64,000 bases of DNA from Psammoneis japonica (GCA_008632985.1 QPGO01000001.1:900404-964403); one strand, 5' to 3'. Positions 11,141 through 59,199 are shown, numbered from the stretch's first letter. The notes: a model not told the origin generated them from the sequence alone. Program-made: numbers and translations.

Positions 11141-11282
11141 TCTTGTCCTTCATTCGCACCAACAAAGTATCCGACGGGCATTCCTAGTGAGGATCCTTCA
11201 GCTGCACCATCTTGTCCTTCATTCGCACCAACAAAGTATCCGACGGGCATTCCTAGTGAGGATCCTTCAGCTGCACCATCTT
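11141..11282 (+). repeat. Perfect 69-bp tandem duplication
   Basis: tcttgtccttcattcgcacc... at 11141 and 11210; encodes SCPSFAPTKYPTGIPSEDPSAAP twice. Confidence 0.95.
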
Positions 11283-12126
11283 CCGAGCGAATCTCCTAGT
11301 AGGATGCCTGTCGCTGCCCCATCCCGAGCACCATCGGCAGAACCGACTCTGCTCCCATCCTCAGACTCTAGCGACAAACCGACTTTAATGCCGACGCTGT
11401 CTCCTACTGCTCGTCCGAGCAAGAGCCCATCAGACCCCCTTTCTCAAGCACCAACGACAGTGGCTATTAAGATAGACACGCGGACCAACGATGACGATGG
11501 TATCGACATTATTGTTGATGAGCCTGTTACATGGACTTACACCGTCACTAACGAGGGTACGGCGCCCCTCGTCAACGTGTTAGTCATTGATGACATGATC
11601 GGTCAAGTTACGAATCTTGTGGATGGTGATATTGACGGCGACAACGAGCTTGATGTCGATGAGACTTGGGTATATGAAGCCGTTGATACTTCCAGGGCCG
11701 GGAACTACAGCAACACAGGAAGAGTTTCCGCTACGTCCGGCGAGGAAGAAGTTGAAGACGAAGATTCCTCATCCTACTTTGGCGCGAATGTATCTGTCAT
11801 GATTGAAACGCTGACCAACGGTGAAGAAGCGGGAGTTGAAATTGAAGCGGGAAGTCTCGTTACCTGGACATACATTGTTACCAATGACGGTAACGTCCCC
11901 TTGAGTAACATTCGTATCGACGATGATGAACCCGGTGTTGTACCGGTATTGATCTCGGGAGACTTGAATGGCGATGACATTCTCGATGTCGGGGAGACAT
12001 GGATTTACGCTGCCAATGGTACTGCCAGGACTGGAGACTACTTTAACTCTGGCACAGTAGAAGGTTCCTTTGGTGACGAAGACGCCGTTGACAATGACCC
12101 AAGCTCCTACTTCGGGTACAATGTCT

Positions 12127-12450
12127 CAGTAAAGATTGAAACTTTGACCAATGGCGACGATGGAATAACCCTGGATGTCGGCGATGGTGTCATCTGGACG
12201 TACGCCGTTACCAATGAGGGGAATGTGCCTTTGAAGAACGTTCTTGTCACTGGTGACCAAATTGGAGTGATTGAAAACCTCGTCTCTCCCAGTAAAGATT
12301 GAAACTTTGACCAATGGCGACGATGGAATAACCCTGGATGTCGGCGATGGTGTCATCTGGACGTACGCCGTTACCAATGAGGGGAATGTGCCTTTGAAGA
12401 ACGTTCTTGTCACTGATGACCAAATTGGAGTGATTGAAAACCTCGTCTCT
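12127..12450 (+). repeat. Tandem duplication with 163-bp period that shifts the frame
   Basis: cagtaaagattgaaactttgacc... at 12127 and 12290; one substitution seen (actggtgac vs actgatgac). Confidence 0.95.
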
Positions 12451-15300
12451 GGTGACGAAGACGAGGACGGAAAGTTAGACGTTGACGAGACATGGCTATA
12501 CCAAGCCACCGGCAGCGCAGTGAATGGCACTTACAATAATGTTGGAACTGTTGAGGCAAAATCCAGAGGACAAACGGTGGATGATGATGATTCCAGCTCC
12601 TACACTGCAGTCATTTCCAATCCTATTAGCATTGAAACTGTAACCAACGACGGTGATAATGTGGCAGTGGAAGAAGGTGAAGCTGTAACGTGGACGTTCT
12701 TTGTGTCCAACCTAGGAGACCAACCTCTCTCAGATGTTCAAGTGGTGGACAGCGGAGGCACGATCCCAACGCTCGTTGGTGGAGATGATAACAACAATGG
12801 CATCCTAGAGCCTGGTGAAGTATGGGTCTTCCAATCAGACGGACTAGCAGGTGGAGAACCATATTCCAACATCGGAACGGTCACTGCCATTTCCAACGGC
12901 GAAACGGTCACCGCAGCAGACCCAAGTTCTTATGTTGCGGAGAAACGAATTAAGATTGTTACGCGGACCAACGAAACGGACCACTTTGCCGCTGGTGTTG
13001 GTGAGGTCGTGCAGTGGACGTATATTGTGACGAATGAAGGCGACGTTTCTCTCTCCGACATTGAGGTGACGGATGACAAGGGTGCAACTCCGTCCTACTT
13101 ATCGGGTGACACCAATGGTAACGACGAGCTTGACCGCGGAGAGACATGGTTGTACGTAGCAAATGGTATCGTCGAACAGGAGGGCCCGTACAACAACACG
13201 GGAATTGTCTCAGCCAAATACAACGGAGTTGACGTCATATCTCGAGACCCGACTTCGCATGTCGGGTTTGCTTTTCCTAATATCCGAATCAACACTCGAA
13301 CAGAGGGAGGAGACGGGCGAATGGTCAGCGCCGGTGAGAACGTGGTCTTTACCTACGTTGTGAAAAACGTTGGTGACGTGCCTTTGTCCAACATCACCGT
13401 CACTGACAACAAGGGAGTAGTTCCACTCCTTGAGGAGGGTGACACCAATAACAATGGCATTCTTGACGTTGGCGAGCGATGGGTGTACAGAGCCGTCGGG
13501 ATTGCCGAAGAGGAACCATATGAGAACATAGGGTCAGTCACTGGCATGTTTGGTGACACAATGGTAGAAGACGACGACCCAAGCTCCTACACGGTTGATG
13601 TCCCGGCTGATTGCCAGGTGAGACTCATCGCCAAGACCAACGGAGGGGACGACAGAATTATCCTTCCCGGCGAAGCAATCACTTGGACATACAAGGTCAA
13701 GATCATAGGAAATGCTCCGGTTACCAACATTCAGATTAACGATGGTCAAGGCGTGACCATCAGATACGAGGAAGGCGACGACGATGGCGACGATATTCTT
13801 GACATAGACGAGGCATGGGTCTATGTTGCTACTGGAACAGCCACAACCGGCGAAACAAACACTTTTGCCACAGTCACAGCCACGTGCGACGACCAAGAAA
13901 TCTCTGCATCTGATGAAACGGATTACTTTATACCAGACATTGACATCGAGACGGAGGTGAATGGCCTAAATAGCGACACCGTGGAAGCTGGCGACGAAGC
14001 CATTATCACATACATAGTGACCAATCGTGGTAACGTACCCCTACGAAACATCATCTTCTCCGAAATCGATCAACGCATCTTTCCGGTTCTGCGGGAAGGT
14101 GGAGAAAACGGAGTGCTTCAGCCCAGCAACGTGGGTTTGGGAAGCGCGACAAACCGCAGGGTCGCCGGGCTTGACACAGCTTCGGGGTATGGTCAGCGGG
14201 CGCTATATTGTCGACGAATTGGGGATTGACATAGAAGTGAATGCGAACGACGAGAGTTCGTACTTTACCCCGGGCGATCAGGGATGCATGCCAAGTTTCT
14301 GGAGAGAAAACGATGCTGCTTGGGTAACCTACACACCAAACGAGAGGTTTGATATCGTGTTCGAGGTCAACGCAGAGGGCAACCGAGATCTCTTGGACGT
14401 CGTGTCGGAGACTGGCCAACCTAACGCCTTTGCCAGACACGCCGTGGCGGCCCTGCTCAACAGTGCTAATCCAAACATTGAGTATGGATTGTCACCAAAT
14501 CAAGTCATTGACCTCTTCCAGGACGGATGGTTCAACAATGACTTTGAGACAGAGCTAGAGATCTTTCAGAGTATGAACGGAGCGTCTTGTCCCTTCATTG
14601 GAGAAGATCCAGAAGGACCAAGAGATTGAAAAAACAAGACATGTGAGCATCATTGACATTATAAAAGAGAAGGGTCCATCTTAATTCATGAATGAACTTA
14701 CCTTCAAAGCGCTCTTCCGCTCCATCCGTCCCGCAAAATGATGTGTTCTTGAGCCTTGAGCATCGCGCCCATGTTCCGGCACCGGAGAAAGCACCTAGAG
14801 GACAAGACACTGAAGTGCCAAGGCAGTGAGGGTCGTTTGCATGTGTTTAAAAGAGAATACCACCCCCCATCAGGATTTAACTTTCCTCTAATGCGTCCCA
14901 CCTCCGCTGATATTGAAGCACTCCACAACAAGCGAAAAGCGAAATGTGTTGTGATCAGGTTTTCTGAAAAGCAAAAATCGCACTCGTTTGCACAGAATTC
15001 CAAAGAGAAAGCCCAATCCAATATCAACACTATATGACAAGACTCGAAAATGGGGATACAATTATTGTATCCACAGTCCAGGTGCTGTCGTATTCGTTGC
15101 CGTTCGTCATGGTGACAAGCCGAATGGTGTATCATACTGTTGTTGCGTCTTCGCCCAGAATTCCAAAATTCTGTTGGGTAATGACGCATGTGTACCGGTA
15201 GTAGATAAATATCTACGTCAATTTTCTGGTATATCGAGTTTTGTACCAGAGCTACGGAGGACGCCACGAGCCACGCGACGAAACAGATGATGCGGCTGCA

Positions 15301-15771
15301 TGCCGCCGCTTTTCTCGTTCGTCCTTCGGTCGACCCGGATTGGGAGGCTAGGCAGCAAGTGGGACAGGTGGTTAGGAGTGGAGAGTGCTTTACTAGAGTG
15401 CACATGACGCCTCTCCAAATCCCAAGCTGGATGGCAGGGCCAGAGGGCGGGAGAGGTGGGAGCGATTAAAACTGTCTGGTTGTTGCTTTGCTCTTCGGAA
15501 GAATGAGAGGTGCAACAGGGAAACAAATCGTCCCGAGGTCAGAGAGTCATTTTCAACGGTTTTTCTGTGGGGTGCCGATGACCAACGGTCATGGGCCCCT
15601 CTCGTCCATTGGACTTTTCAAGGACAGCGGCTGCCACTGCTTTTCTCGTTCGTCCTTCGGTCGACCCAGATTGGGAGGCTGGGCAGTGAGTGGGACAGGT
15701 GGTCAGGAGTGGAGAGTGCTTTGCCAGTGCACATGATGCCTCTCCAAATCCCAAGCTGGATGACAGGGCCA
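15301..15771. repeat. Pair of ~140-bp direct repeats (15301-15442 and 15632-15771)
   Basis: Shared ttttctcgttcgtccttcggtcgaccc...ctctccaaatcccaagctggatg; offset 331 bp. Confidence 0.95.
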
Positions 15772-15858
15772 CCAGCGCCTCCCATTGGCGACATGGAGTC
15801 GGAACGGGCCACGAGTCTTGGGTGGGTGGGTGAGCCCGGCTAGCGGGCTGGTGGTGAA

Positions 15859-16800
15859 TCACGGAGGTTCCGGATGAACGGGAACCTCCGCGCTTGGGTG
15901 GAGGACGAAGTCTCCACCCTCCAACATGCGTCTGGCGAAGTTGCGCATGATGGGTTCTGCCTGGAGATGAAGGCAACGAAGCATCTCGTCCAATCGCCAC
16001 TGGCTCAAGAGCCAGATGATGTCGGTGTCAACACGGGCGCAAAGCAATGCCATGGCGCCGGCAGCTCGGAGACAACGGGCCGAAACATCAGCGGGGTTGA
16101 AACCCAGGTTGGCGGGGCCAATGGCAACGACAGCGGTGCACAGCACGGAGGAGATGTCTGCCAGTGAAACACGATGCCATTGATGATTGGCAAAAGAAAC
16201 TCCCAGCGGGGTGTCTGGGAGCGCTCCATGAGCGCGAAGGTGCTTGACGCGCTCAATGAGAGCGAGGACAGGGCAAAGTTGGGGATGGCCAGAGCGGCCT
16301 AAACCAAGAACTTTGCCACGGATGCCATTCTTTTGATTGGTGAACGCAAGTGTCACAAAGGTGGCAGCATCAAGTTGGGCATCAGTGGCTGTCCAAATGT
16401 CAAGGCAAACACCGCCCGAGGAGAGCCGTGCGTCAGCGAGGCGGAAGGGGGTGGTGTCGGATGGGGTGGCGGTGCATTCGCCAGGCCGAAGGAGAAAAAA
16501 GCAAGCCAGTGCAATCATGCTGGCAATGGCTTTTGCTCTCATGTGGGGTGTGATTGCGACGGTGTGGAGTGTCCAAAAAAGGACTGCAATGGGGACCGGT
16601 TTGACCCGGTTGGGTGGAGGATCCTCTTTCTTGTGATGGCAGATTTGTCGGCCAAGGCGGAAGTCCAATTGGCCTTGGGATGTGAGTCGGGGGTCTTGGG
16701 TCCCCACTGCCACGAACATTTGCCCAACCTGATGCACGGCATCTTCAGCAGTGCGTGCGCGGATGGGATTTCCACGGGGGCAATGGCGCCAGTCCGGCAC
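15859..16800 (-). pseudogene. Tyrosine recombinase, catalytic Tyr replaced by Cys
   Basis: FFLLRPGEC, FTNQKNG, LCPVLAL, SARCLRAAGAMALL, QWRLDEMLRCLH (expected GRWxSDxxxRYL). Confidence 0.9.
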
Positions 16801-16968
16801 CGATGTGGGAAGACTTGAAGGTAGACGACGGGGTCGGAAACGTCTTCGAGGAGTGGGTCGAGGGCCAGTTGGGTGCAGAAATTGGACCAGAGACTCCAGT
16901 GGGTGTCAGCGGCGGAGGATCTTGAAGCAGTGACACCGTGGGCAACGGCATGCTGCACAGCGCTGACA

Positions 16969-18454
16969 TCACGAATGAACGCAGCGCGGGTGGTGGGGCC
17001 CACATTCGCCAGGAGGAGATCTGTGGACAAGCAGAGTCAAAATGGTGCAAGAAATCAGAGTTGGAGAGGCGTTGCATGCAAGAAGCGTCATCTGCTGCGC
17101 CGCTGAGGCAGCCGGGGAGATGGTCGTGGAGGCCAATGTGACGGTGATGGCGCTGGTGGTGGGCTTGGCCCAGGAGGAGATGGGAGGCTGGTTCAATGGT
17201 CGTGCTGGCTCCTTTGCGTTGCTGAAACATGGTGTCGAGGTCATGGTGCAGGAAAGGAAAGTTCGTTCCCTGATGTCGCAGCAACCCGCAATGGCACAGG
17301 ACTGAATGAAGCTGCCTGCGAGCTCAAGGTCGGTGTTGGTGATGGGACCTTTGGGATTCTCGCAGGTGGCAAGGCTGGCGGTTGCGTCCTTGGGAAAGGG
17401 CATGCGCCACACAATGGGGCCCAGGCGTGTGTGAGGGCGGACACGTCCGGTGCCAGTGCGGAGTTGAGTGGCCCGTGGTGCAGCTGTGGGAGTCGGCAGC
17501 AGGACGCCACCGGCACCATGGCCGGCTGCGTCGTGACAACCACCAACAGCAGGTTCCAACGGGACCAGCTCTTGAATGCGGGTGGGACGTGCATCCAGCA
17601 TTGTGCAGAGGTCTCGAAAATCATCGAGAATGGTGTGCATGTTCTCCGCAAGCCGGAGGCGTGCGTCAGGTGCAGCATGGCAGAGATTCGCCTGCAGAAC
17701 GGAGAAAAGTCTTCGGGCTCTGGGCAAGGCAACAGCGAGTGAACACAATTCGCCCAAGAGCTTCTGGCAATCAAGGACAGTGGTGTGGCGGCGGCTCCGG
17801 GGAAAGTCTTGGTGCAGTGTTTGGCGAAGGCGCTCTCGGCAGCGTGGTGTTAGCCGCAAGGTCATCGACTGAGTGTCGATCAACCAGCCGAGGACCTCCT
17901 TCTGTGTGGACCACGTTGCATCGCCCTTGCGGAGATTTTTGACGGATGTGGGCTCCTTGCGAGTGGGCAAGTCAAGGGAATCGGCAGGGCGAAAGATGTC
18001 GTCGATGGCATGCATGACAACTTGGTGTGCATTGCGGCGGGCAGTCTCATCGCCCTGTGCTGCACCGATGAAGTCGTCAACACAAACGTCGATGTATGTC
18101 GTGCATGTCTTCCTGCAAAAAATCGATGTGCTCGCAAGCGGACTTGTGTGGCCCCCTGGTGACACTTGCTTCTAGCTCTTCGGCTGTCCACAGTGAATCG
18201 GCAACTGTGATGGGCGCTCCCCGTGTTCGGCAGTGGCGCAAGAGCCTGTGGGCTGGATGCCCTGCGGCCTTGTGGAGCTGACCCCAGTCTCCTCTCTTCC
18301 TGCGACGGTGAAGGAGGTAACTGAGACCTTTTTGACGAAGCACAAAAGCATCCTTGAGAATTTGCTCACCCAATTTATCCAGCTCAGAGTTGGCAATGGT
18401 CTGCCCATGAAGAGTGGGACGACCATGGCTCTGCTGAGCATGCAGATTCTCCAC
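16969..18454 (-). pseudogene. RT/RNase H of the YR retrotransposon, internally deleted and frameshifted
   Basis: RGPHKSA..H..FL; YIDVCVDDFIG; KEVLGWLIDT; RNase H CHDAAGHGAGGV and ITNTDLELAG. Confidence 0.85.
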
Positions 18455-18544
18455 CTGCGGGGGTGGCGGGTCTGGAGCCGTCGCCAGTTCCAGATGAAAA
18501 GGCTCTCGGCAGTCGGTCCCCGAACCGATGCCGCTGCCGAATTC

Positions 18545-20340
18545 TCATTCGGTCCTCCAATGCTCCATGGCCCACTCCAGGAGCGCAGCCTGCTCTGCAT
18601 TGGTGTGGCATCCGTGATGGTCATTGTGGGAACCACAGCTGGTGTTGCATTGGTGCTTGATGTGGCAGGGGAGGCAACGGGCAGCGCCATTTGAGTCAAT
18701 GGGCAAGGCAATGTTGTTGCGAGTGCAGCGCTGCTTGACATCACGTCATTGCATGTTTGGGCAGTCACGAATGGCAGAAAAACGGTCATCACAGTTCTCG
18801 TTGCAGACAATGGAATTGTCGCCCGGAGTCTGAGCTTGCCCAGCAGGTGCGGGTGCAGGTGCTTGGGCCGATCCCGGATGCTGAAGCGGTCCCGTCGGGC
18901 CGCATGTTGGTGGGGCTTGGGGTCAGACGGCGATCGGCAGTGGACGCTGCCAATTCATGGTGCCCTTGGCCGCCTCGCAGACAATGTTCTTGGGCGTGAA
19001 TGGAGTGGGATTGTGCATGGATTCTTGATCCTCAAACCAATGATGGATTTCGATCTGGACATGGCGCTGGAAATCTGCAGGCAGCGCAGGGCAGTGCGTC
19101 ATCTGCAGTGCAAGATCATTGGCGCAAACGTCCACAGAGCGGCGAAGGTCCATGAGGCAATGGACGACCAGGTGGGCAGCGCCTGAGGCCGCAGACAGGA
19201 CCACCTGGAGTCCATCAAGTGGGTGTTGGACCGCCTGCATGGTGGTGGCAACCTTCGCATCGTCCGGTGCTTCAAGGACCATGGTGTTGGATGGGGAGGG
19301 CGTGCCCATTCCACCATGAATTTGGCGGCACATGGCCACACGGTGCGCAATCTGTTCCGCCTGTTGAGGAGTGGCAAGTCCAAAAATGAAAGGATTGACA
19401 CCTTGGGTGAGATCATCTTCATTGTGTCCGGCCAATGAGAGTTGAACAAGTTTGGTGACCATGCTGACTGAGATTGGGACCTCAAAGCACACGTTTTGTG
19501 CCTGGCGTTGCTCGTCCACAGCATTCTGCACTGCAGTGATCGGCCCAGTCTTGGGTGCAGCGGCCAAACGTTGCCACAAGGGCGGAAGCTGATTCTCTTG
19601 ATGCACCTGGCACAATCTCATGAGTTTTGTGACACCGTGTTCTCCGCAGAACTGCACCGGCGTCTTTCCGCAATTGGCAGCCTGTTGGTGGGCTTGGGCA
19701 TCCAAACGCTGTTGCCGCTGTTCCGTGGTGAGGTCGTTGACAGTGCGAATGATCAGCTGGAACTGCGGTCCCGGCACAGCCGGTGCCTTGAGTCCAGGAA
19801 GGTTGTGCTGCACGCGTTGGTCAAAGAAACGAATCAGATGCTCGTCAGGCAGTTGAGGGACAGTGGGCCACTCTGTGCAAACCGCCGACTCCTCGCCATT
19901 GGCTTGCGTCGCGACACATGCGATGCGCAAAAAATCCAGAAGTGCCCAGCAATCGGCCACTTTGTTGGCTGCGTCAAGCGCTCCACACATGCGAGTGCAT
20001 GCCTCCTCAGGGGTCAACGGCTCTGGCAGGAGCAGCTTGACCAAATCGAATGGTGCGAACATGGTTCCTCTCGTCCGACGTCCGAACCTCCTCTGAGTCC
20101 GCATTGTTTGCTGCTGCAGCCGGGTGCAACCCATTGGGCGTGGCGATGATGTGGGTTGCCAGAGCCACATCAGTGGGAACCCAAGTCCCTTGTGCGGCCA
20201 ACGCAAAATGCGCATCCGGGGGTGTCGCAACGGTGTGCTGTCCTTGGCGCAGGTTGCCGACGATCGTGAACTTCTGACCATCCCATGGCTGGGGTGGCCC
20301 TGCGACCGTGGTTGGATGCAGAGCAATGCGATGGCAGACA
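18545..20340 (-). pseudogene. Gag-like ORF1 of the YR retrotransposon
   Basis: Long ORF 18923-20473 (LMRLCQV...LPPLWQRLA). A downstream frame gives a C-terminal Cys/His motif CLPCHIKHQCNTSCGSHNDH ending at about 18545. Confidence 0.7.
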
Positions 20341-22686
20341 TGAGTTTGTCATCAATCATTCTCAAAGCACTCCTGCGACACACGGTTGTCTCTTCACTCT
20401 TGGATTGCCTTGACACCCACACAGCAAAGACATGGATTTGACAGAAGTGAGTGAGCAAAACATTTCCTCCCATGCTTCAATGGCTGATGTCACACGCTGT
20501 CCAAGCTGCAGCAATGGTGACTCTGACAACAGTGTGAATGAGCACCCAGCACTTGAAAAGAAGCAACCTGCCATGGTGGCAACCCCGCTGCCAAGCGCCA
20601 TGAAATCAACATGCTTCAGAGCATCTTCATTGCACAGTGCTGTCCAACAACTGTTGTTGAGGATGTTGTTGGGCAATTGGCCACAATCATTGATGGGAGC
20701 ATGCACTGATTGTCAATCACATGAGTGCCACCAGCTGCATGGCACTCTCCCCCCAGTCTTGCAGACTGGGGCCTGTTCAGCCTGTGGCAGTGCAGCATCA
20801 CAAGTCACAAGCACCTGACACTGTGGGTTGTGGTTGTCATCTCAGAGAAAGCAGAGACTGCTGTTGTCAGCAGCTCATTTGTCCTGTCATGATGTTTGGT
20901 GAAGAAGTTGAAAATCGTTCCAGGAATCTTGCAAAAGTTGGAAAATTGAAGAGGAGGACTGAAGGATGAGGAATGAAGAGGAGGTGAGTTGCTCGTTCAA
21001 CATGTTTGATCCTGTCAGTGACTTCACTTAAAGCCAATTGCAGGAATCAATCCAATTCAGCCAAAGATTCTCAGCAGAAGGAGCTGCAAAGAAGAAAAAA
21101 TGAAGAGAATGAGAAAGGACCCAGCTTTGCACCACCTTTGTGTTGAGCATTTGCAGCTTGCTGAAAAGTCATGTGCTCATGAGCAAGAATCAGAGAAGAT
21201 GGGTGACACTGCTGGCAGGAAGCAAAAAAGAATGAATGACGATGCAACTGGAAGGAAGCAGAGAAGAGCAGATGATGACGACCTTGCCAATGTGGGAAAG
21301 AAAGATTTGGCACATGAAGAACATCTGGGATCAAGCAAGAAAAGCAAGGCCCCAGAAAGTGAAGCACAGATCAATCAAAAGAGGCAAGCAGTTGCAATTG
21401 ATGCTGCTGCCCAACCAATCAAATTTGCACCAAACCCCATCGCCCAACCCACCAAAAGGCACCCCAATTTGCCAGCAATGGAAAAAGACCATCAGAACAA
21501 AGCAGGCCTGTTGGTCAGAGAAACTGTGTCAAAGGCCACAGGAGCCACAAACCAAACAACTGACCAGCAAGGGAGTGCAGCAGTCAAGCTGTCAGCAATG
21601 TCCAAGAAAACCAAAATCTTGGCAGCTCAGCCTGTGGATGCCAAGACTCAGAAAGACACAGAGCTGAAACCAAGAAACCTGAAGTCTCAGCATGCACCAG
21701 CAATTGCAAAGAAGCAGAAAAGCTTGGGAAGTGTTGAGGCAGTTCATTTGGGTGCAAGTGCAGAATTGGAAGCCAAGAACAACAGCAATGTGGGTGGTGC
21801 GGTTGCATCTGTCTTTTGCCACAAGTTTGTCCTTCTTGTTTTGGCATTGATGTTTGCCACTTTTTGCTGCTGCAGTTTGGGACCTCCAGTGCTGGGGCAA
21901 CAGGAAGTCAAATTGATTGACATGGTGCAAGAACAAGGGGAATCCATTCAAGACAATTGCAGCAAGATGTGTGACAATGCCAGTGGGAAGCACAAAAAGA
22001 GCAGGTGACAACCTGGCCAATGCGGAGAAGGAAGATTTGACATGTGGAGAACTTGTGGAATCAATGAAGGAAACCAAGGCCACAGAAGGCAAAGCACAGC
22101 TCACCCAAGATGGGCAAGCAGTTGTGACTGATGCCATTGCCCAACTGGAACATCTGCTGATTTGCTGGCACAGTTTAACCAAGAAGCATTTGTGCCAAAG
22201 CCTGTTGCCCAACCCGCCAAAACACATCCTGTGTTATAAAGTCACTTCAGCATCCAAAGTGAGGGTCAATCTTGACTCTGAACCCATCAACAGCATCTCT
22301 GAGTCAGAGTCATTTGCTCAGAAACCACCTGCCAAGGTGGCATCTGTCAACAGTGGCTCTGAATCTGAGTCTTTTTTACCACAAAGCCATCCTCCAAGTC
22401 AACTGCCAGTCTCAAATCTAGCTCTGCATCAGTGACCCATGGAAAAGGCCTTGAGTTGCAGGTCATCAAACCCCACCATCTCATGGCATGCGCACATCTG
22501 CAAACATTGGTTGACCCCCCCTCCAGATTGAAGTCAACATTCACTTGTTGGGAGTGCAACAATTTTGTTTGTTTTCACCATCATGATTGGCACATTTCAC
22601 ACTTGTTGCTCCCAGACACATTTCACTCAATGTGCACTTGTTGACTTGGATGCCAACATGCCAAGTGACATGGCAGCATTGCTCTC

Positions 22687-23050
22687 TCATCTCTGAACAG
22701 CTGCATTTCATTCCAACTGAAACATGTTTGTTTTCACATTGTGCAAGCATTTCTGCCAAAAGCGCTGCATTTCCGTCCATGATGTGGGCCAATCATTTGG
22801 CAAAATTTTCACCTTTTTCTGTTTCCCCCTCAAAACCCAACCTCACTGTCGACTCGCCACAATGTCATCTCTGAATGAATGAGTGCATTTTGTTCCAACT
22901 GAAACATGTTTGTTTTCACATTGGACATGGCATTTCTGCCAAAAGCGCTGCATTTCCATCTTCATGACCAGTGTCAATCATTCAGCAAAATTTTCACTTT
23001 TTCTGTTTCCCCCTAAAAACCCCATCCTCACCACTGACTCCTCACAATGT
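22687..23050. repeat. Diverged tandem repeat of about 180 bp, 2 copies
   Basis: ttccaactgaaacatgtttgttttcacatt...catttctgccaaaagcgctgcatttcc occurs at about 22711 and 22893. Confidence 0.9.
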
Positions 23051-25000
23051 TCCATTTGCAGCATTTGTCTGACTGATCATGTGCAGGGCATTTGTCCCTT
23101 CCACTTGTGATCTGCAGATTCAATTCCCCATGTTTTTTGTGCATCAGCACAGATCCACGAAAGTGGCACGACAAGGAGTCTGTCGGATTCCTGTGCAAGA
23201 CTGCACTGCGTGCATCATCACGAGCTGCCAAACAACTCTGCACCACCATGACAATGAAATGCAATGGCATTGATGCTCAATCCATCTTTTGTGAAGCACA
23301 CACAGTCACCACAACACAGCACCAACAATGAAAAAAAGAACAGGTGTCCTTTGACACAAGCGGCAAGTTTGTGATTTTGATTGTTGAGATGGCTCGTCAA
23401 TGAATTGGCAGCAAAACACGCCTTCAGCATGGGATGCACTGCATCTGATGACACATGTGCATTGTCATGGTCATCTCATGTGACTCATTGGTGATTTGCA
23501 CTCCACGGGACTCGGAAATTGACACCCGAATGTGCCGCATCATGGTCGTCACAGTCGATCGACGACTTGAGAGGTCAATGAAAGCACATTTTCCTGGTGC
23601 ATGAGCCACATGGAAATCACGCAGAAAAATGGTTCTTGTTCATTGGAGCCAACAGAGTGCAACTTTTCTCATGATGACACCCAGTTTTAACCATTTGCAT
23701 GATCAGAAAGCCCTTTTTCTCTGCTTTTCAGCAATGTGATTTTGCAAAAAGTTAAAAAAAATGACAAGAAGGCACTTTTTTCATCCTGCGGTTCACACAA
23801 TGTTCAGACATCAATGAGGCACATGGTTGAATTGGATGGAGAATCTTTTAAATTCAAACAAAGATGTGCAGCCAAACAAAAAAACACAGGGAAAGCACCC
23901 TTTTCAAGCAAGGAACAAACACAAAGAGGGGAAAAGAACAACCGTCGCATGCACATCATCTGCAAGACTCAGCCACATCCATCACCTCACTTCAGTGCAC
24001 CGCACTTCAGCACACACTGGAAAAATCACTTCAGCAGCAGCAGAGGATGATGGTCATTGTAGAGCAGCAGACAACAAGCTCCACCAAATGGATGGCGCAG
24101 CGACACATTCGACGACAAGGAAATGGATGGAGCAGGCATGCTCTGCAGAGATTGCTTGTGTTGACATCCAAAACAATGTGGGTGCATCCAGCAAGAAGAG
24201 AAAGGTTGTCAGGACACTCAAGCATTTCATGGCAGCAAAGCCAAAAAACATTGATGGAAACGTGGGACTGCAGAAGTGCAAGACACCAAGGAAAAGCAAA
24301 GGGTGGTCACCAAAGGCCAACAAGTTTTTTGTTGACATGGTCACAAAGATCAAGCAAGATGTTGCAAGCGAACACCTCGGCCAGTGGGAAGAGCTCTGCA
24401 GAGCCATCACAACTGAGCAAGATCAATGGGCAGCACAAGGAGCACAGGATGGCTTGGATGATGAAGGCAACCACCAGGTCAACTGTGCCAAAATCTACAA
24501 ACTGGAGTTGGCGGCAATTTGGTCGAGACCAACTTGGCAGCAATGACTTGCATTCACACTCATCGACAATCGCTTGCAGCAGAGACATGCAACAAATGGA
24601 TGGGACAATAGAGAACATTGTTTGAACATGCCAGTCAACTGATTGACTTCAACAGCAAAGATTGAAAATGAACCCAAACACTGCATTCAGTTGTCACCCA
24701 GTCGGCGATGACAAGCCAAGTGAAATCCCGTAAAGCAACTCATTTGGAGTTGCAAACTGATTGGGTTGCACCTCACTCATTGTGATCCACAACTGTTTGT
24801 TGATGTCCCCAGACATTCCTTGGTTTGCATGGACATTTTTCTTCATTTTCAATCACACCCATTTGTGGCAAAGGTGTGATTCATGTCAAATGGCAATGAT
24901 TTGTCATAAACAAATTTGTGTGCCAACACTCACAAATGCCATCTGCAACATTGTCCATTGGTTTGACCACAAGACAATTCATGGAAATGGGCCTCTGATG

Positions 25001-25084
25001 CAAACCACCTGCCAAGGTGGCATCCGCCATCAAACCTGGCTCCAAACCACCTGCCAAGGCAGCATCTGCCATCAAATCCAGCTG
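25001..25084. repeat. 42-bp tandem repeat, 2 copies; related sequence at 22322
   Basis: caaaccacctgccaagg at 25001 and 25043. Confidence 0.9.
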
Positions 25085-27475
25085 CTGTGAAGGAAAAAAA
25101 TAGCCATTGAAATTCAAAAGGTTGTTGGCATCATCATGGAGAAGGAAATGAAGCTTTTCATTGAAAAAAAAAAGATTGTTCACAAGGGGTTAAAACTGAG
25201 AAATTTTGCAACAACGGAGGGTGAGTGATGTTTGTCAAAGAAATTGTCAGAACGGGTGATGTGGTCAGCATCTTTGTTGCAGTTTAAGATGATTTAGAGC
25301 ATGAGCACCTCAGAACTTTTGAAACTCATGCAGCTGCTTGCCACACTTGGTTGGTCAAAGGATTCTGCTGTCAACTCCCGCTCACTCAGCCACAGCTGGA
25401 TGATTCCCCACACTCATCCACAAGCATTCCAGCCACACATTGATGTCACATCAGTGCAACCAATCATTGCAACATGCCAAGATGGAAGATGAACAGCATT
25501 GCTGACATTGCTGGTCCAAACACAAGGCTCAGTGAAGCAACAAACAAAGCAAAAACAAGATTTTCAAAGAACACATGGCAGAAATTGCAAGAAAGGACAG
25601 CAGAAACAAGCACAAGAAATCAAGAGGCCATCATTTTGGTTTTGAGCAAAAGTGGGGTGTAAAGAAGTTCAAGCTCAGAATGGCAGATGGGGAATGTTGC
25701 TGCCGTTGTCCATTTGAAGGATGCGGCCATTTGTTTCCATCAAAAGACATTGCTTCTGAAGAAATGAAGGCCAACGGAAATCCAAAAATTGGCTGTCATC
25801 ACAACAGAAATGGAGTGGCAATTTTTGCTAAGTGTGGTCAACCAGTGCCTTGCTGCAACAGCTGTTGGTGCACTCATGTGCCTTCCAAAACTCTGTCTTT
25901 GCACATTGGCAATGTGCTCATTCACAATGCTGCTAAAATGTTTTCAAGAATGAAGTTGAAGTGAGGTTGGGTTGTTGTGAAAGTGTTGCACAAATGGGCA
26001 GATTCTCTCCAGTGGACTCTGCCAATGATGTCCCTTGTCAATTAAAATGCCAGCCCAAGGGTGCTTCTAAAGAGAAGCAGCAGAAGAAGAGGGTCACAAA
26101 TCTGCAGCAGAGAAAGACTTTCATGTGCAGGGTTTCTGCTCAAGTTGGTTTGTGGCACTCAAGAAGCCAAGGATGACATGTGTCAACACAACATTTCTGC
26201 TTGAGTTGAGATGTTTTTGGAGTCCATCATTGCAAAAACCATCATTGGATTTGCAACCACACCCCCAAATCTGAGCTGACCACACAGCAAACAGCTTTTG
26301 AAGCTGTGACTGTGGAGCTTCCTTTGCTGGCCTTGCCTTCCCTCTTTCTTTTGCAGATGCCAGCAGCTGCATCTTGAACCTTCTGCATCACTCTCAAGTG
26401 CAGGGGTGCACCGGAAGCTCTTTCAGCAATGAACCAACTTCTTTTTTTTGTGAATTTCCACCACAACAATCAAGGGCACCTCCTTGATGCCATGCTTCAT
26501 CTCATGCAAGAAAAAGCTGCTTGAAGGGGCTGCCCTTTCTCTGACAGCAACTGAAGCTCATGCTGCCCCTGTGTTGGAGAGGGAGCAGCATGGTGTGTCT
26601 TGTGGTGCAACATTGTGTGGCAGCCCACCTTGTCAAACAACGTTGCACGGCAGAACATTGTGCCGCCTTGCATGGGACAATGCTCATAAAATGGCTGCAG
26701 CATCATCTTGGGCAATCAAACACAATGGTGGTGGCTGTTTCTCTTTGTGCACACAGAGGGCTGGCAGCATGCATCTGCCAAAGCTGCAGCTGCATCATGC
26801 TCTCCAAGCTGGCCATGCTGAAATGCTGAGCCAAAGCCCACAACCACAACCCACAAATGCAGTTCACACTCAAAATGGCAACAACATTTTGTTCCAGGGT
26901 TTACATGCTCTGGACACATGGCCAATGTCCAAGCCACAAAGCCAGCACATGATGAGACATTGGGCAAGACCAGGGCCACCACACCATGTCAGACAGATGG
27001 TTTGTCATGATGCCTCTGGAATTCCCTCATGAATCCACATGTGCAAAAAACTTTTCTGCAGAGAATTCCATGCAAAACATGCCATGAGACACCATGCTAA
27101 CAAATTGTCTGCATGCAACCCTTGCACATTGTCCATTGTCCATCTTGCTGCTTCCATGAGAGTCTGTGAGGGCAACCTTGGGTGTGCACAGCACACACGA
27201 CAACGGTCAATGCATGGACTCACTGTGGAGAGTGGCTGCCAGCTGTGCTGTGGTGGGAGTTGGAAGCTCAGCCTTGTGTGTGTTGCAACCACACATCAAG
27301 TCTTACGAGTCATGCTGATGACACTTTTTTTGTCATGGAGGTTGGCAACTGCCATGGTCCAATTGGGCAAAGAGGTTGACTTTTCTAAAAAGACACTGTG
27401 TCGCCTGCCTTGGTGCACATGATTTCTGCGGTGTGCACACAAGGTGCTGATCTGATGTTTGATGGACATCATCTT

Positions 27476-27500
27476 GAGAGAGAGAGAGAGAGAGAGAGAG
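27476..27500. repeat. (GA)n microsatellite
   Basis: About 12 GA units. Confidence 0.95.
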
Positions 27501-30500
27501 CCACAGGATGTCATGAGCTTTCAAGTTCAGTTCAAAATCAGTGCCAGGTTTTGCAAGCTTTTTGGTCCATTGCTTTGTCGACCTTGGTGCTGCCAGGTTT
27601 GTTGTGGATTTTGGATGACCACTGTGGCTTTCATTTGGACATTGTTTGTTCTGCATTTCCCTCGTGGACCACACCATGTGCTCATCAAACTCCCACAGAA
27701 GATTGACAGCCGTGCATTTTAAAACAAGCATTGTGTTTGTTGCATTGGAGACTGTTGCTTGAGTCAAAATGTCAAAGTCATTTGTCAACATCATTTGCAA
27801 CATGTTCCATTCATTGTTTGCATTGTCAAGATTTAAAACACATCTCATCTCATTGTCAGTTGAACTTTTCCATGGAAAACATCAACAACAACTTGTGCTG
27901 TTGTGCTGCAACCTTGAGCTGTTGCTCTTGACAACACAAGCTGTTTTGTTGCATCTTGACTGGTTGCATCTCTCAACATTGTTGCACAGTGTTCATGTGT
28001 TCACTCTTCTGTCAACTGGGTCATCAAAGCTTCCACCCACTGCCAGTGTGTCAATTTGTTTGTTTCATCAAAATGGCTGCATTGTCTCCTGCTCTGCACA
28101 ACACCTCCAGTTGATGTGTGTGACAGTGCTGCACCCACACTGGCTGCCACACTTTGTTCACAAGCCAGCACAAGTTTGTGCACCAAGAAGTCAACCTGTG
28201 ATCTCTGGTTTGCTCTGATTTGAAATGCCCATGTCAGAGTGTTTCAAAGCAAAACTGGGTTGAACTCCTTTGTCTCTCCAAGTCTCCTGTTCATCAAGAA
28301 CTGTCTCTCAAGTGACATGGTTGCTCTCAATTGTGCCATTGAACTGTGTTCATTTGAAATGGATCCACAAGTTGTTGTCTCAAGAACATCTCTGCTGATC
28401 CATTGTTGAGCTTGCTGTGTGCATTTGGCACTGCCTGCAGCCACATCAAGTCATCCTCTCAACTCTTTGCCATGACTGACCACAGCCCTCCTCTGCCTGT
28501 GGCTCTGCAGGCAAGTCAAAAACTGCCTCTGCCTCTTTCTTTAGCTCAACAGAATCTGGCATCAGCAACCAAAGTTCCACAACCTTGGCCACAGCTGGCT
28601 GATGGTGGAATTCATCCTGAGTGTGATTGCCACATGGGTGGGTCCCCACTGGATGACAACTGCAAGCCACAGCTCAAGCAAACCTTGGATGCTCTCACAA
28701 TGACACCAATGTCATCAAGCTTGGCAGAAACTTGGAACTTCCCAGAGGCAAGGCAGACAAGGAGCATTTTGTTCAGGCAATCAAGGTGGCAGTTCATGAA
28801 CACAGCATGGAAAGCTTTTGTCATGAAGCTTGACAAAGGTCATGAATCTGCACAGCTTGTTGATCATTTAGAAAGTCATTGCTGAGTGCAAGCATCAGTC
28901 TTGCATCAATGCAAATGATGTGGTGCATCAGCCATGATGAACACAAGCATGACAACATCAATTTCACATGCCTTGTCATTAAGTCTTGCATCTCCCAACA
29001 ACTCAACAAGAAAATTGAAGCACAGCTTGGCCACCAGGACCTGTTGGAGCACTTTCCTGGCTAAATCATTTTCATGATGGTGCTCAAGACTTGCAGCACA
29101 TCTGCAGCTCATGATGTTGCTCCAGCTTCCAAAGATTTTGAAGCTTTGGTGCTTGATTCCCACCTGGATGAAATGCAACCAAATTTTCTGCCAAAGTGCA
29201 GCTGCATTTCAGCAAGATTCTCCAGACCAGGTGTGCTCTTCTGGCCCAGCTTGGCTCTGCTCTCCTTGGCAGAAGTGAGGCTGGCCACACATGTAAAAAG
29301 GTGCCTTGGTGTGCTCTTGCACTCCCAAAACTTTTGTTGAGAAAAGGTGTGCAGAATGCAATTGTGTTACAAATGCTTTTTGTCATGTGCGCAAACACAT
29401 TTTATGACAAATTGTTGTGACCATTGAGATTTTCTACTGGCCTCCATTCATTGTGAAAAAGGAATTGACAAACAACACATGCATGGCTGAGAAGCACATG
29501 ACAAGATCTTTCCATCAATGTCCACACCTCAGAATCAACCATTCAAGCTGGCAGCACCTTTTCTCATGTGGCCAGTCTCAAGTGTTCCAGGTCTTCTGGT
29601 GAAATTTTTGATCAAGCAATTTTCACAAAGTGAGATCCAGCACAGGACAAGGGTTGCGTCACCCCCAGTCCAACCACACATGCCATGTTTCCTCCCAATG
29701 AAGCATTTCAACCCATGACAATCCACCACATTCAAGGAACAGCTGTGGAGGCTTTGAGCAATGCATTGATCCCTTCTTGAGAGTTGAGGGCAAGAGCCAT
29801 GCAAGAAATGCTGCAGTTGACTGCAGTGAAATGGATGCCACTGTCAGCACAACAAAAAAGTGTTCTCAAAGCATTCAGCTCCCCAGCTCAAGCTGTGGCT
29901 CTTGTTTGCAGTTCTTTTTGGCACTCACCACCTGCACACAAGTCATCTTTGTCATTCAAAACTGTTCCCTTGAACATGAGCTTGATGTGTTGATGTGTCA
30001 AACCATTGCTGTTGATGGACACAATGCAAGGCACTCTTTCACTGCTGTGGATGTCACCCCTGCAGCCAGTGGCTTCTCAACAACAATGCACAAAAGGCGA
30101 TGGTGCTGCAGCAGGCAGAGCTTCTTGCTTCATTGTTGGTGCCATGGCCTGGCCTCTCACAGCATTGCAATCAAAAAGAGGGACATGGAGAAAAATTGTG
30201 CCATGGCCATGCACCTTGTTTTGGAAGAATTTCTTTGTAGAAATGTTGCTGTGGCTGCATGGCATTTGTCCATCACTGTGCCAGGAGAGCCATCATCTGT
30301 CTGCCTTTCTGCCCACTCAGAAGTGCTGATGCAGTGCCAGAAACCAAGCACCTCTCCAAAAGTTTTAGTTTCTTGCCCATGTTCAATCAAAATGCAGACT
30401 GTGCTGCTTGCAAGTGCCCTTGCCATGCTGTGTCTAAACGAGAGCTCATTTGTTCCTGGTCATTCAAACCAGAGCTGCTTGTCACACTTGAGAAACATCA

Positions 30501-32726
30501 AAGATTTTGGGGGTCCAACTTTCAACTAACTTGCATCAAAGCTTGGTCTCAATCAAGTTCATTGCTTGCATGGAGCACAACAACAGAAGCCCATCAAAGC
30601 CATTTCCTTGGCACTGTCTGCAGGCAACTTCCCCACACTTCCTTGTGTCATCAAGAATCAGCAAGAAATCAGTGTCATCAAGTTGCATCTGACCAAGCAT
30701 CTCTTCCAAATGATGTCCAGCAGAAATCTCATGATTCAATGCAAAATCACAACAACAGTCAGCCCTTGCAAGGTGGTCCTCCTTCCAAACCAAACAACCA
30801 GAGGAGTCAATGGAAAGTGGCAAAATGGACCACAGCTCAATCTCCAAGCCACAACATTTCCTTGCTTTCTCTCTCGATGCAGCTCATGGTTGCAGAGGCC
30901 ACAAAGTAAACTGCTTTCAACCATGACCAAGTTCTGATGCATGACTGATGACACAAAATAAAATGGTGTGCACTGCACAAAGAAATTTTGTTGCATTGAC
31001 AAATCATGACAAAAGGAAGGCTGGGCTTTCATGCATTTTGTTTGTTCAATTTGTCTGTGTCTCTCCTCTGGCCTGCCCCCCATGCAACCAACCAGAGACA
31101 GATGGTGAAGATGAAGTCAAGGTGCGGGTTTGGGGCTGGTCACTTTCAAAATGACTAAATTTGCAAGTGGTCTTTTTGTGCATGAAATTGCACTCAATGA
31201 TTTTCAAAGGCTTTGGGGTTGTCATCCAACTTGCTTCATTGACACAAAAGACATCAAATTTTTAGAGTTGCCTCAAGTCAATTTTTTGGTTGAAAAATGA
31301 TTGCCTCCTGGTCAACCAATCTCATTTTTTTTACTTCTTGGTCATTGTTCACAAACAATTGAGTGCCAGCCTCTTTTTGTCTTGTGGTGGTTTGAGTGCC
31401 AGTGTCTCTTTTTGTCTTGTGTGGTGGTTCACCCTCATTGGCGGACATGCAAGACTTGTTGACACCAGTGTGCATGCCACCATCAAAAAATTATGGTCAC
31501 AGATCAAAGTCAAGACAGATCAAGCAACACTGCTCAACCCTTGTTTTGATGCCTGCTCTGACACCTGCAAACCACAACCCCAGATTTCCACTCTTTCATG
31601 TTGTTGAAACAAGTGTTGTGCACAGCGTTGTCACCAATTGTGCTGTCTCACACAGTCGTTTGCAGCATTGTGCACCTGAAATGACTGAGAAACATGTTCA
31701 GTGAAGCCTCTTTCTTGTTGTGTCTCTGGACAGAGCCACATGAACCCAGTTGTCTCTGCAGTCCAAGTTGTTGACAACCAGGCTTTCAACTGGTGTCTCC
31801 TCCCCCTCTTGGGAGCTTGTGGACAGTTGTGCAGCATTGTTGCACAAAACTGGGAGCTGGGTCATTTGCATCCTCTGGCAGATTTTTGGAGTTCTCTTGG
31901 CAATAAAATCCATTGCAAGGAAAGGAAAATTGACAATGCATGCCTCTCTCTCCTTGGATCCGCACAAAACAGATCTCCCTGCCCTGCCTTCTTCTGCTCA
32001 TGCCTCAAGACAACAGAGTCAACTTGTGAAACACAGGCTGACCTCACCCAGCAACCATCAACCCTTGTCAAATCTAAATCTTCCAAGGAAACACCTTCAT
32101 TTGGCTCAACTCCTTCAAAAAAGCCAAAACAACTGGCCTGCCAGGACTTGTCTGACGACCACAATGAATGGACACAAAGCACCACCAAATCATGTCTTTG
32201 ACTTCATCAGTTTGTCAAAAACATTGGATGACAAAGAACAAAGATGACAAGTGCAAGACAGAACATGCTGCTGCTGCTGATGAGTTGTGCAACATTGTGT
32301 GTTCTTTGCACATGCCATCGTTTGTGGGCTGCAAGCAAAGGCAGCAGCCACCTCTTGTGGGCCAGTGCAAGCACCATCATCAATCAAGAGTTGATTGGAG
32401 AGGCACACAATGAAGATGACACTGATGTGAGATGTTTGACAATGCTTGTGGATGTCACCAAGTCCTGGTTTGCCAGTGACGAACATCCACACGAAACCCA
32501 AGAACATTGTGGGGAGATCACTCTCCTCCTCAAAAAGAACGACACAACCACACAATGATGCTCATGCTTGAAAATTCAAATTTTCACATCGTGGCTCTGT
32601 GTTTGTGCAGACAATGAGACACAGCCATCCAGTGAAGCGTTCAATTTTCTTAGTCACAGTGCATTTGTGGGACTTCTCATACGGTAGACTACGGCCCCAT
32701 CCCCCCCCAAGACTTGTTGGGGCGTG

Positions 32727-32738
32727 TTTCGCGCGAAA
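32727..32738. promoter_or_regulatory. Palindromic E2F-like site TTTCGCGCGAAA
   Basis: Matches the TTTSSCGC consensus on both strands, about 170 bp upstream of ATG 32905. Function is inferred only. Confidence 0.35.
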
Positions 32739-32904
32739 ATCATTTCGCCGCGCGAATGTTGGCCCAATTGGGCAAAGAAGACCACACAGCACACATGCCT
32801 GCACACGCAAAACGCAGCGCGACCGAGGCGCGACAGACAGACAGAACAATGACACAAAAAACAACACACCAACACACACACGCAACACAAGACACACATC
32901 GACC

Positions 32905-34059
32905 ATGGGCAAGAAAAGTAGACGCCACAGGGCCAGAAGCAAGGTGAAATGTACTCGCAAAAGCGTTTCACTCGAAGAAGTCGATGATGAGACTTTGAGG
33001 CGCATGACGGAGCTCCTTGTCGTCCTGGTATCAACGACCGAGATAAAGAAAGCGCTGGCAGCTGTGAAAGGCATTTATTCTGCCACTCATGTTGGCAACG
33101 AAGGCACTCCCACCTCAGAGATCTGCGCGGGTGATACTGAAGGCGATCGCGCATCACGGGCTCTTGTCAAGGTCGGCGGTGTTGAGGCGATTATCTCCTT
33201 CATGCGTGAAAATCAACGCACCGTATTGGTAGCCTTGTTTGGTTCGTGTTGCGCCATCCTCACCCGTGTTTCTGTTTCGGCTCGTGAGGAGTGCAGCCGA
33301 GCCATTGTCCAATGCGGCGGGATTCCGATTGTGCTCGGCGCTTTTCGCATCTTTATTGAGAAGTTCAGGTGGGAGGAAGGGGGCGTGTATACTTGTAAAT
33401 CGGCAATCTCAACAAATCACGCGCTCGACATTTTGAAGAGAGTGGCTGATCAGCACGTGACTGAAATCCTGCAGGCCGGTGGGATCAAAGCTGTTCTTTC
33501 GGTTCTCAAGAACATGTGGCCCGTAGAAAACGCTGCAATAGTATGGAGACAAGCGATGAGCGTGTTACATCACATTGTATTGCCGAGTTACACAAGTGGA
33601 AATGCTCAGCTCCTTTCCATAGTGTCGCAAATTGTGGCCTTTGGCGGCATCCCCACCATTGTGGCACGCATGAAGGCCTTCTCCGATTCTAGAGCATTGC
33701 TTGGTAGTGGATGCTTCTTCGTTCAATTGCTATGTGATGCTACAGTAGGTGGGGACCCGTCCGCAGTTCTTGCTGCCGGTGGGGATGAGGTCATTCGTAT
33801 GGCCCTCGAGTACAACGAACGAGCGGCGGCCCCAGATCCTTCTCTCCGGCAATGCCTTCTAACTGCCAATGGGCTCATGAACAATGTTGTTCCTCAGTGT
33901 CGCAACTGCGGTAGGCAATCTGAAGACATGATGGTGTGTAACCGTTGTGATACTGCTTGGTACTGCAGCAACGAATGCCTTGCGGGGGATTGGCAGAATC
34001 ACAACGCTGCGTGTAACACGGCGAGGTGGAAGCCCCTCAACAATGTCCAGCAGGAATAG
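32905..34059 (+). CDS. ARM-repeat-like protein with C-terminal MYND zinc finger
   Basis: CRNC...CNRCDTAWYCSNECLAGDWQNHNAAC; helical GG(I/V)xxI repeats; normal TA content. Confidence 0.9.
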   Translation: MGKKSRRHRARSKVKCTRKSVSLEEVDDETLRRMTELLVVLVSTTEIKKALAAVKGIYSATHVGNEGTPTSEICAGDTEGDRASRALVKVGGVEAIISFMRENQRTVLVALFGSCCAILTRVSVSAREECSRAIVQCGGIPIVLGAFRIFIEKFRWEEGGVYTCKSAISTNHALDILKRVADQHVTEILQAGGIKAVLSVLKNMWPVENAAIVWRQAMSVLHHIVLPSYTSGNAQLLSIVSQIVAFGGIPTIVARMKAFSDSRALLGSGCFFVQLLCDATVGGDPSAVLAAGGDEVIRMALEYNERAAAPDPSLRQCLLTANGLMNNVVPQCRNCGRQSEDMMVCNRCDTAWYCSNECLAGDWQNHNAACNTARWKPLNNVQQE

Positions 34060-59180: not shown

Positions 59181-59199
59181 CCAGAACAAATCATGATGT

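Follow-up and report, generated by a model that had tools for sequence, protein, structure and literature searches.

Loss of TA dinucleotides and conserved tyrosines in a dead DIRS-order retrotransposon within a 17.5-kb TA-free domain

Hypermutation of integrated foreign DNA at TpA dinucleotides has recently been described in the mutation-accumulation lines of the alga Bigelowiella natans, where 231 of 302 nuclear mutations fell in regions of integrated giant virus and virophage; 230 of these 231 were A>G or T>C, every one of the 230 was on TpA, and the rate came to about 6e-7 per site and generation (Mettrop et al., bioRxiv 10.64898/2026.01.13.699255, 2026). According to the main text of this preprint, 324 predicted coding sequences of B. 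natans have a mean TpA frequency of 0.0018 and are enriched for reverse transcriptase (RT) and DDE domains, the giant-virus and virophage inserts still hold 3.3% and 9.2% TA dinucleotides, respectively, and an ADAT2-like deaminase is proposed as the enzyme (bioRxiv 10.64898/2026.01.13.699255). A literature search returned this one matching report of TpA-specific A:T>G:C hypermutation of foreign DNA, a 2026 preprint on two viral inserts. The present text deals with a dead tyrosine-recombinase retrotransposon of the DIRS order, which lies on the minus strand from 15301 to about 20500 in a stretch of 64,000 nucleotides recorded for Psammoneis japonica (GCA_008632985.1 QPGO01000001.1:900404-964403). 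This whole stretch is called the window below, and all positions are counted from its first letter.

The locus resembles that of B. natans, as presented in the main text of the preprint, in several respects: the changes are TpA>TpG/CpA transitions on both strands, they are sharply local, the depletion of TA goes together with an excess of CA and TG, and the TpA frequency of 0.0016 in the element is close to the mean of 0.0018 in the low-TpA coding sequences of B. natans. With the cut-offs of the preprint (rho TA no higher than 0.43 and rho CA+TG at least 1.52, in runs of at least 3 kb), 24 of the 64 1-kb segments of the window pass, among them runs at 18-32 kb (15 segments) and 58-63 kb (6 segments). 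The changes at TpA are A>G or T>C as in B. natans, and CpG transitions occur in addition. Unlike the case described in that main text, in which a rate was measured in viral inserts, the target here is a retrotransposon, a domain of 17.5 kb is near saturation, the loss of CpG is coupled to that of TpA, the element carries its own ancestral control, and the surviving TA have a biased context. The main text makes no mention of CpG, retrotransposon, tyrosine, DIRS, context, trinucleotide or flanking, and the supplements may cover some of these. That is to say, the locus is a new instance of a recently described process, the most complete one known to us, and not a process of a new kind; what is possibly new is the retrotransposon as target, the near-saturation, the link with CpG loss, the edge inside the element, and the survival of TA mainly as YTAR. 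It shows the end state of TpA hypermutation on a retrotransposon, and if the host is other than B. natans, the process is more widespread than reported.

Two other kinds of systems are close to it. Repeat-induced point mutation (RIP) of fungi also makes saturating, dinucleotide-specific transitions on both strands and disables mobile DNA in place, with fairly sharp borders. However, RIP turns CpA/TpG into TpA and yields more AT and more stops, whereas here TpA is turned into TpG/CpA, GC goes up, and TAA and TAG are gone. RIP as such was rejected, since it is C>T at CpA and leaves an excess of TpA, while here TA is depleted at least 15-fold and CA and TG are enriched. In animals, APOBEC (C>U on cDNA) and ADAR (A>I on RNA) likewise cause deaminase-type transitions in a fixed neighbour context and inactivate retroelements; they act before integration and on one strand, whereas here both strands were hit after integration, and the flanking DNA too.

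Direction, strands and timing of TA loss

First of all, the signature is plain in the composition of the element. Between 15468 and 20500 there are 8 TA in 5033 bases (rho 0.04), and rho is 1.50 for TG, 1.59 for CA and 0.74 for CG. The ancestral state can be read at the 3′ end of the element, where a direct repeat of 142 nt is present in two copies 331 nt apart. The outer copy, B2 (15301..15442, minus strand), lies outside the TA-free zone and holds TA at 15349, 15373, 15391 and 15394; the inner copy, B1 (15632..15771, minus strand), lies inside the zone, and the edge of the zone falls in the spacer A2 between them (15443..15631, minus strand; last TA at 15467, next at 15841). An equal repeat-spacer-repeat layout is found in a relative from metagenome contigs (L019), whose 114-nt copies lie 357 nt apart and are 100% identical. 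Since the two copies start identical, as in this relative, the ancestral state (TA) is readable within one element. At the four TA sites of B2, B1 reads TG, CA, TG and CA, and at four sites where B2 keeps CG it has TG or CA; in total, the two copies differ by 11 transitions, no transversion and one 2-nt gap. As B1 differs from B2, the changes came after the copy was made. Moreover, in the four internal duplicates of the region (B1/B2 and three short ones in TA- and CG-free DNA), 23 adjacent double transitions were counted, 15 of them CA<->TG, which is the pattern expected of the independent resolution of one ancestral TA or CG.

The direction from TA to TG or CA is proved a second time by the conserved tyrosines. 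The recombinase frame (15859..16800, minus strand) had 1223 homologues at E <= 0.001, the best 120 of which were aligned, and 374 relatives were confirmed in a scan of metagenome contigs, the best 80 loci being retained for comparison. For the scoring of columns, the frames of the relatives were placed on the element by tblastn, a column being counted where there was at least 60% agreement of at least five relatives; 14 long intact relatives, treated in the same way, served as controls. The original prediction, made from the sequence of the window, had held that the catalytic tyrosines of the retrotransposon were systematically converted to Cys, and the four codons to which it pointed are as it described them: TGC at 15973-15975 (minus strand) at the nucleophile position of the recombinase (DEMLR-C-LHLQA), TGC at 16474-16476 (minus strand) at the RPGE-x position (LRPGE-C-TATPS), TGT at 18082-18084 (minus strand) in the RT box (TYIDV-C-VDDFI), and the second Cys codon (18667-18665) of the gag knuckle CLPCHIK (18676-18656, minus strand). 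Among the best 120 of the 1223 homologues, 118 have Tyr in the nucleophile column (the other two being P0002 with Cys and P0051 with Ser) and 117 have Tyr in the RPGE-x column, which bears out that TAY was ancestral at both. In the gag knuckle of the relatives, C-x-[ST]-[Y/F/W]-H, the fourth position is Y nine times, F three times and W twice among the 14 alignments shown (a pair of them being copies from one locus), so that here Cys replaces an aromatic residue. For the RT box, relatives do keep Y or F, but because F is found in 12 of 20 and Y in 8, Tyr is the likely and not the certain ancestor at this position; going by the codons, TAT>TGT would be a TA>TG step, and TTT>TGT would require a transversion.

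In the 11 Tyr-consensus columns of the element, Tyr is kept once, while 3 columns have His, 3 have Cys and 4 have another residue; that is, Cys or His stands at 6 of 11, compared with 9 of 195 in the control relatives, which retain Tyr at 148 of 195 (Fisher p about 1e-5 for Tyr retention and for Cys/His gain each). The conversion of Tyr therefore stands, but not the conversion to Cys alone, His (CAY) being about equally common. Both strands were hit, because Tyr->His is as frequent as Tyr->Cys (3 and 3), TG is about as frequent as CA, and B1 has two of each. There is no Tyr in the 313 residues of the recombinase frame (15859-16800) or in the 516 residues of the ORF1 frame (18923-20473), as had been noted before; there is one in the 398 residues of the frame 16969-18165 and none in the 212 residues of the frame 18172-18810. 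The frames of the relatives contain 2.1% Tyr (2336 of 110502 residues), at which about 30 Tyr would be expected over the 1439 residues of the element. TA rho is 0.30-1.04 in all of the 80 related loci (best of 374) and 0.03-0.04 in the element, and the depletion of TA is not a trait of the family and is far beyond chance.

The only homologue with Cys as nucleophile, P0002, contains 2 Tyr, the lowest count among the 120 (median 7), and its motifs read RPGE-H-T and HR-H-RTG, with CC in place of YY. It is accordingly another mutated copy, found in an environmental sample, and not an active Cys variant of the kind that would speak against the original prediction. Once corrected for the His that accompanies Cys, for the action on both strands and for the further lesions of the copy, the view of the element as stripped of Tyr by the loss of TA is supported.

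The loss of TA also changes the reading frames. TAA and TAG together number 11 in the element, compared with 171 TGA, both strands counted, and 432 compared with 473 in host-like DNA. Since TAA and TAG are erased and only TGA stops are left, long frames are open on both strands, and 43 open reading frames of at least 80 aa overlap 13-22 kb. In TA-free DNA of this kind, spurious frames of great length arise on either strand and Pfam fails to respond, which is a warning for annotation. It had been suggested that the process inactivates the element while leaving long open frames; the opening of frames is confirmed, but point mutations as the first cause of death are not established, in view of the deletion, the frameshifts and the in-frame TGA stops described below.

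The TA-free domain, CpG loss and the surviving TA

TA-free blocks were defined by the gaps between successive TA, and they cover 8947-10750, 15468-32919, 34583-35833, 48867-50058 and 58102-64000. The main one, a domain of 17.5 kb (15468..32919), comprises the element (TA rho 0.04, CG rho 0.74) and 12.4 kb of non-simple DNA (TA rho 0.06, CG rho 0.16). It starts about 170 bp inside the 3′ end of the element, extends 12.4 kb past its 5′ end, and ends about 350 bp into an open frame encoding a MYND finger. The unit on which the process acted was thus a domain and not the element. Host-like genes of the window (a DUF7507/DUF11 repeat gene and genes for an aldehyde dehydrogenase, an HPP protein, a GH99-like protein and a poly(A)-polymerase-like protein) have TA rho of 0.57-0.68 and CG rho of about 1.0. 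One of them, at 11001-14630, is the bacterial-looking DUF7507/DUF11 repeat gene, with internal repeats about 80% alike; because its TA rho (0.60) and CG rho (1.05) are normal, repetitiveness or a foreign look is not by itself sufficient for depletion.

Loss of TA and loss of CpG go together across the window. Over the 64 1-kb segments, TA rho and CG rho are correlated with a Spearman coefficient of 0.81, and CG rho is below 0.5 in 20 of the 29 TA-poor segments compared with 0 of the 33 TA-normal ones. Along a gradient, a second retroelement at 1984-8224 has TA 0.42 and CG 0.78, the present element 0.04 and 0.74, and the neighbouring blocks 0.02-0.06 and 0.12-0.31. In the element, about 95% of TA and about a quarter of CpG are gone; by rough arithmetic, survival is about 0.065 for TA (0.04 compared with about 0.6) and about 0.74 for CpG, which gives a TA loss about 9 times faster per site. 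The coupling with CpG loss is a hint of methylated, silenced chromatin.

In the depleted blocks 85 TA are left, of which 43 are YTAR, 3 are RTAY and 39 are mixed, while the 1057 TA of host-like DNA include 156 YTAR and 331 RTAY (Fisher p 8e-17). Unbiased back-mutation does not account for this bias, because the neighbours of TG and CA inside the zones are unremarkable. The simplest reading is a target wider than TpA, which would include either a purine at the second position 5′ of the edited A or its equivalent, a pyrimidine next to that A on the 3′ side; sites open to attack on both strands would vanish first, so that RTAY would be lost and YTAR left. The Tyr codons with known outcome and readable neighbours number 7, too few to choose between these two forms of the motif.

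Proposed mechanism and other explanations

With signature, direction, action on both strands, timing after integration and regional extent established, the locus can be read, with good confidence, as a dead retrotransposon copy that was struck after its integration by a regional TpA>TpG/CpA process at the level of DNA. In this process, TpA changes to TpG (A>G) or to CpA (the same change on the other strand) until TA is nearly gone, with direct consequences: TAY codons become Cys (TGY) or His (CAY), the recombinase nucleophile included; TAA and TAG stops disappear, frames open on both strands, and profile searches fail. CpG also turns into TpG/CpA in the same domains, more slowly, and the older neighbouring DNA has lost both. 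As for chemistry, we lean, at somewhat short of even confidence, towards enzymatic deamination of adenine to hypoxanthine in a T-A context, which would be read as G at the next replication; this is inferred from the pattern of changes. The loss of CpG would most simply be ordinary deamination of 5-methylcytosine in silenced chromatin, and targeting would be by chromatin state or small RNA and not by the sequence of the element. The locus offers several handles on the mechanism: integrated DNA, both strands, a border that ignores the limits of the element, the coupling to CpG loss, and a possible extended motif.

Several points weigh against this account. First, the single transitions of the internal duplicates fall at pyrimidine-purine steps in 45 of 97 cases, with a background of 0.46, so that there is no enrichment overall. 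Second, TA>TG/CA explains only 16 of the 174 amino-acid deviations at conserved columns, CpG transitions account for 31, and transversions or multi-step changes for 96; the element has for the most part diverged from its distant relatives in ordinary ways, and at the protein level the Tyr columns are the only diagnostic ones. Third, the outermost 170 bp of the element escaped, and no model accounts for this escape. In addition, the retroelement at 1984-8224 is without a clear survivor context bias once its skewed composition is allowed for, and the chemistry rests on inference, while the proposed identity with the process of B. natans goes by signature only.

A more far-reaching version of the regional TpA>TpG/CpA process can be put forward as a speculation: a genome defence spanning a whole chromatin domain, a mirror image of RIP, in which silenced domains would bear symmetric marks on TpA and CpG, TpA would be lost about 9 times faster, the target would be wider than a dinucleotide (RTAY vanishing and YTAR surviving), and junk DNA would be turned into long frames. 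If this is true, the erasure of TAA and TAG may explain many unannotated 'genes' in such regions.

The alternative that survives best keeps the same regional process and changes the chemistry. Thymine at TpA might be modified to 5-hydroxymethyluracil (5hmU) or a J-like base and mispair with G, or adenine might be methylated at the self-complementary TpA and then deaminated, in parallel with 5-methylcytosine at CpG. As the signature is symmetric, T>C and A>G are indistinguishable; TA and CG, both of them self-complementary pyrimidine-purine steps, are lost in the same domains, as they would be under a symmetric mark; and 5hmU favours TpA in dinoflagellates. On the other side stands the only candidate named in the main text of the preprint, an ADAT2-like adenine deaminase, and we consider this alternative possible but doubtful.

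Editing of RNA is very unlikely. It would mean that the transcript was edited A-to-I by an ADAR-like enzyme before reverse transcription, so that copies integrated already mutated; the element is indeed a retrotransposon, and in the main text of the preprint ADARs are said to prefer a 5′ U and to hyper-edit repeat RNA (bioRxiv 10.64898/2026.01.13.699255). Editing before integration, whether by ADAR or by APOBEC, was rejected on three grounds: T>C on the sense strand (Tyr->His) is as common as A>G, with Cys 3 and His 3 in the scored columns; B1 and B2 of one element differ; and the flanks are affected, the zone starting inside the element and continuing 12.4 kb beyond it. To our knowledge, ADAR is known only from animals.

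An artefact of misread modified bases, of assembly or of polishing is just as improbable. Over about 10 kb of the zone, long contigs built by another pipeline from the reads of a sequencing run (X1; records 4, 6, 7 and 8) differ from the window at 4 sites, and they are themselves TA- and CG-free there. X1 and the likely source of the assembly go back to one and the same sample, so that X1 is not independent of the organism, which also counts against the account preferred here. An error of reading would fit the four differences, in which the contig has CG or TA where the window has TG or CA (TG for CG at 22354, CA for TA at 25478, CA for CG at 27555 and TG for CG at 28808); they could be either polymorphism of a process still running or residual consensus error at modified bases. 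Yet the metagenome homologue P0002 shows the same Tyr losses, and at CpG codons the frames carry matching amino-acid changes, among them R replaced by C, Q, W or a stop. On 14001-34000, 338 of 733 X1 contigs match at 90-95% likeness, so that related copies exist elsewhere in the sample; the differences of the X1 contigs comprise 224 transitions and 50 transversions, and among the 23 zone differences put in context there are CA<->TG doublets at 15722/3, 19534/5 and 24408/9, which speak for changes made after integration and independently in each copy. Finally, a naturally TA-avoiding, active lineage with a Cys nucleophile, or selection against TA, has nothing but the long open frames in its favour and is hardly credible in the face of normal TA in 80 of 80 relatives, a Tyr nucleophile in 118 of 120 homologues, the deleted RT core, the frameshifts, the in-frame stops and non-coding neighbours that are equally TA-free.

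Structure of the element and neighbouring features

The element is a dead copy of an Ngaro/PAT-like retrotransposon with the order gag-pol-recombinase-B1-A2-B2. In this order, in the Cre-like fold of its recombinase and probably in the 3′ B1-A2-B2 arrangement it is like the described Ngaro/PAT-like elements, and it is unlike them in belonging to a very divergent family, in which even intact relatives stay below every Pfam cut-off. The relatives are units of about 5.2-6.1 kb that encode a gag-like protein (about 700-830 aa), a pol (about 800-980 aa) and a recombinase (about 380 aa). The pair of repeats at the 3′ end appears to be the B1-A2-B2 half of a split direct repeat, a layout of Ngaro and PAT-like elements. 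At this end, a contig of another sequencing run (X2) matches the window from 15303 onward and is unlike it before 15303; between 16002 and 32676 the X2 contigs cover the window only in traces, a gap on which no conclusion is based. An A1 repeat at the 5′ end was not found by blastn or by a purine/pyrimidine-recoded self-comparison, in which two-letter E-values are unreliable; there is no other copy of the element within the 64-kb window, and the recoded self-comparison gave no hidden families between the TA-free blocks. Three metagenome contigs (L019, L027 and L067) are circularly permuted or tandem, with the recombinase followed by gag, and have identical repeats of 114-300 nt about 5.8-6.1 kb apart.

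The recombinase is read in two parts on the minus strand, namely the C-terminal 313 aa (15859..16800), identified by its homologues and its predicted fold, and an N-terminal part in another frame (16539..17030), which has HR-C-RTG (TGC, highest coordinate 16799) where the relatives have HRYRTG, and in which one Tyr survives (TA at 16822). The AlphaFold2 model of the recombinase, built from the alignment of homologues, has a mean pLDDT of 70.6, and in a Foldseek search of the PDB it ranks Cre, XerD, XerH, Tn1549, lambda integrases and type IB topoisomerases at the top (probability 0.98-1.00, TM about 0.5 for Cre). The modelled protein thus has the tyrosine-recombinase fold that marks the DIRS order. 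Judging from the aligned homologues, the nucleophile Tyr belongs to the family (118 of 120) and was lost in the copy of the window, which has Cys.

The pol is likewise split on the minus strand, with an N-terminal part (18077..18454, the GPHKSA region) that abuts motif C directly at about 18095, and a frame from RT motif C onward (16969..18165), which reads C-VDD and has a frameshift near 17242 relative to the relatives. RVT_1 is matched by 11 of the 22 relatives' pol frames of at least 805 aa (E 1.7e-6 to 5e-3) and also by a 519-aa frame of L025 (E 3.8e-5), all below the cut-off of 29.6 bits, and a profile of 20 relatives' pol frames matches residues 111-164 of HIV-1 RT at E 0.008. The consensus of the relatives reads LPMGW..SPP.F and Y.D.[FY]VDD, and the family has a proline-rich insert between RT motifs B and C; the pol of the family is probably a very divergent RT. 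In the window copy, about 200-280 pol residues are deleted at about 18095, and RT motifs A and B are lost with them: the relatives' residues up to about 141-188 align to 18086-18098, and those from about 345-460 onward start at 18093-18099. The RVT_1 and HIV-1 RT matches of the relatives fall in this deleted part. The gag-like ORF1 (18548..20473, minus strand) has in-frame TGA stops at 18923-18925, which ends the 516-aa frame, and near 18740. With the deletion, the frameshifts near 17242 and near 16790 and the in-frame TGA stops, the copy is dead several times over. The four frames of the element match no Pfam family, and a sequence search of the PDB with the recombinase profile and one pol frame returned nothing; because the intact relatives themselves give only sub-threshold RVT_1, the silence of Pfam does not come from the mutations alone.

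Among the other features of the window, the blocks at 20501-32919, 58102-64000, 8947-10750 and 34583-35833 are nearly devoid of TA and CG, have TG and CA near twice the expectation, and consist of complex sequence without Pfam match. Of 51 frames from the TA-poor blocks other than the element, only RVT_1 at 3689-5275 was found in Pfam, and the block at 20.5-33 kb is not made of simple repeats; no tRNA or Rfam family was found within the 64-kb window. The RVT_1 match (E 1e-6) belongs to the second retroelement (1984-8224, minus strand), in which the loss of TA is only partial (rho 0.42) and goes furthest at 4-7 kb. In its RT box, H-IDD, the usual Y is replaced by H, pyrimidines dominate its coding strand to an extreme degree (on the plus strand, GC skew is about +0.45 and AT skew about +0.36), and it may represent a half-way stage of the TA-loss process. 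The block at 48867-50058 is a tandem array of 72-nt units coding for leucine-rich repeats, with 1 TA and with 145 TG compared with 74 CA, and the remainder of the open frame (50059-50838) has normal TA. The aligned units vary only by CpG<->TpG/CpA, and they do not divide clearly into TG and CA, as would be needed to prove that TA was ancestral, so that an amplified TA-free unit and a hypermutated repeat cannot be told apart here; one unit has an in-frame TGA at 49477-49479 where the other units have CGA. At the beginning of the window, an inverted repeat of 253 nt with 100% identity is formed by 1-253 and 1444-1696.

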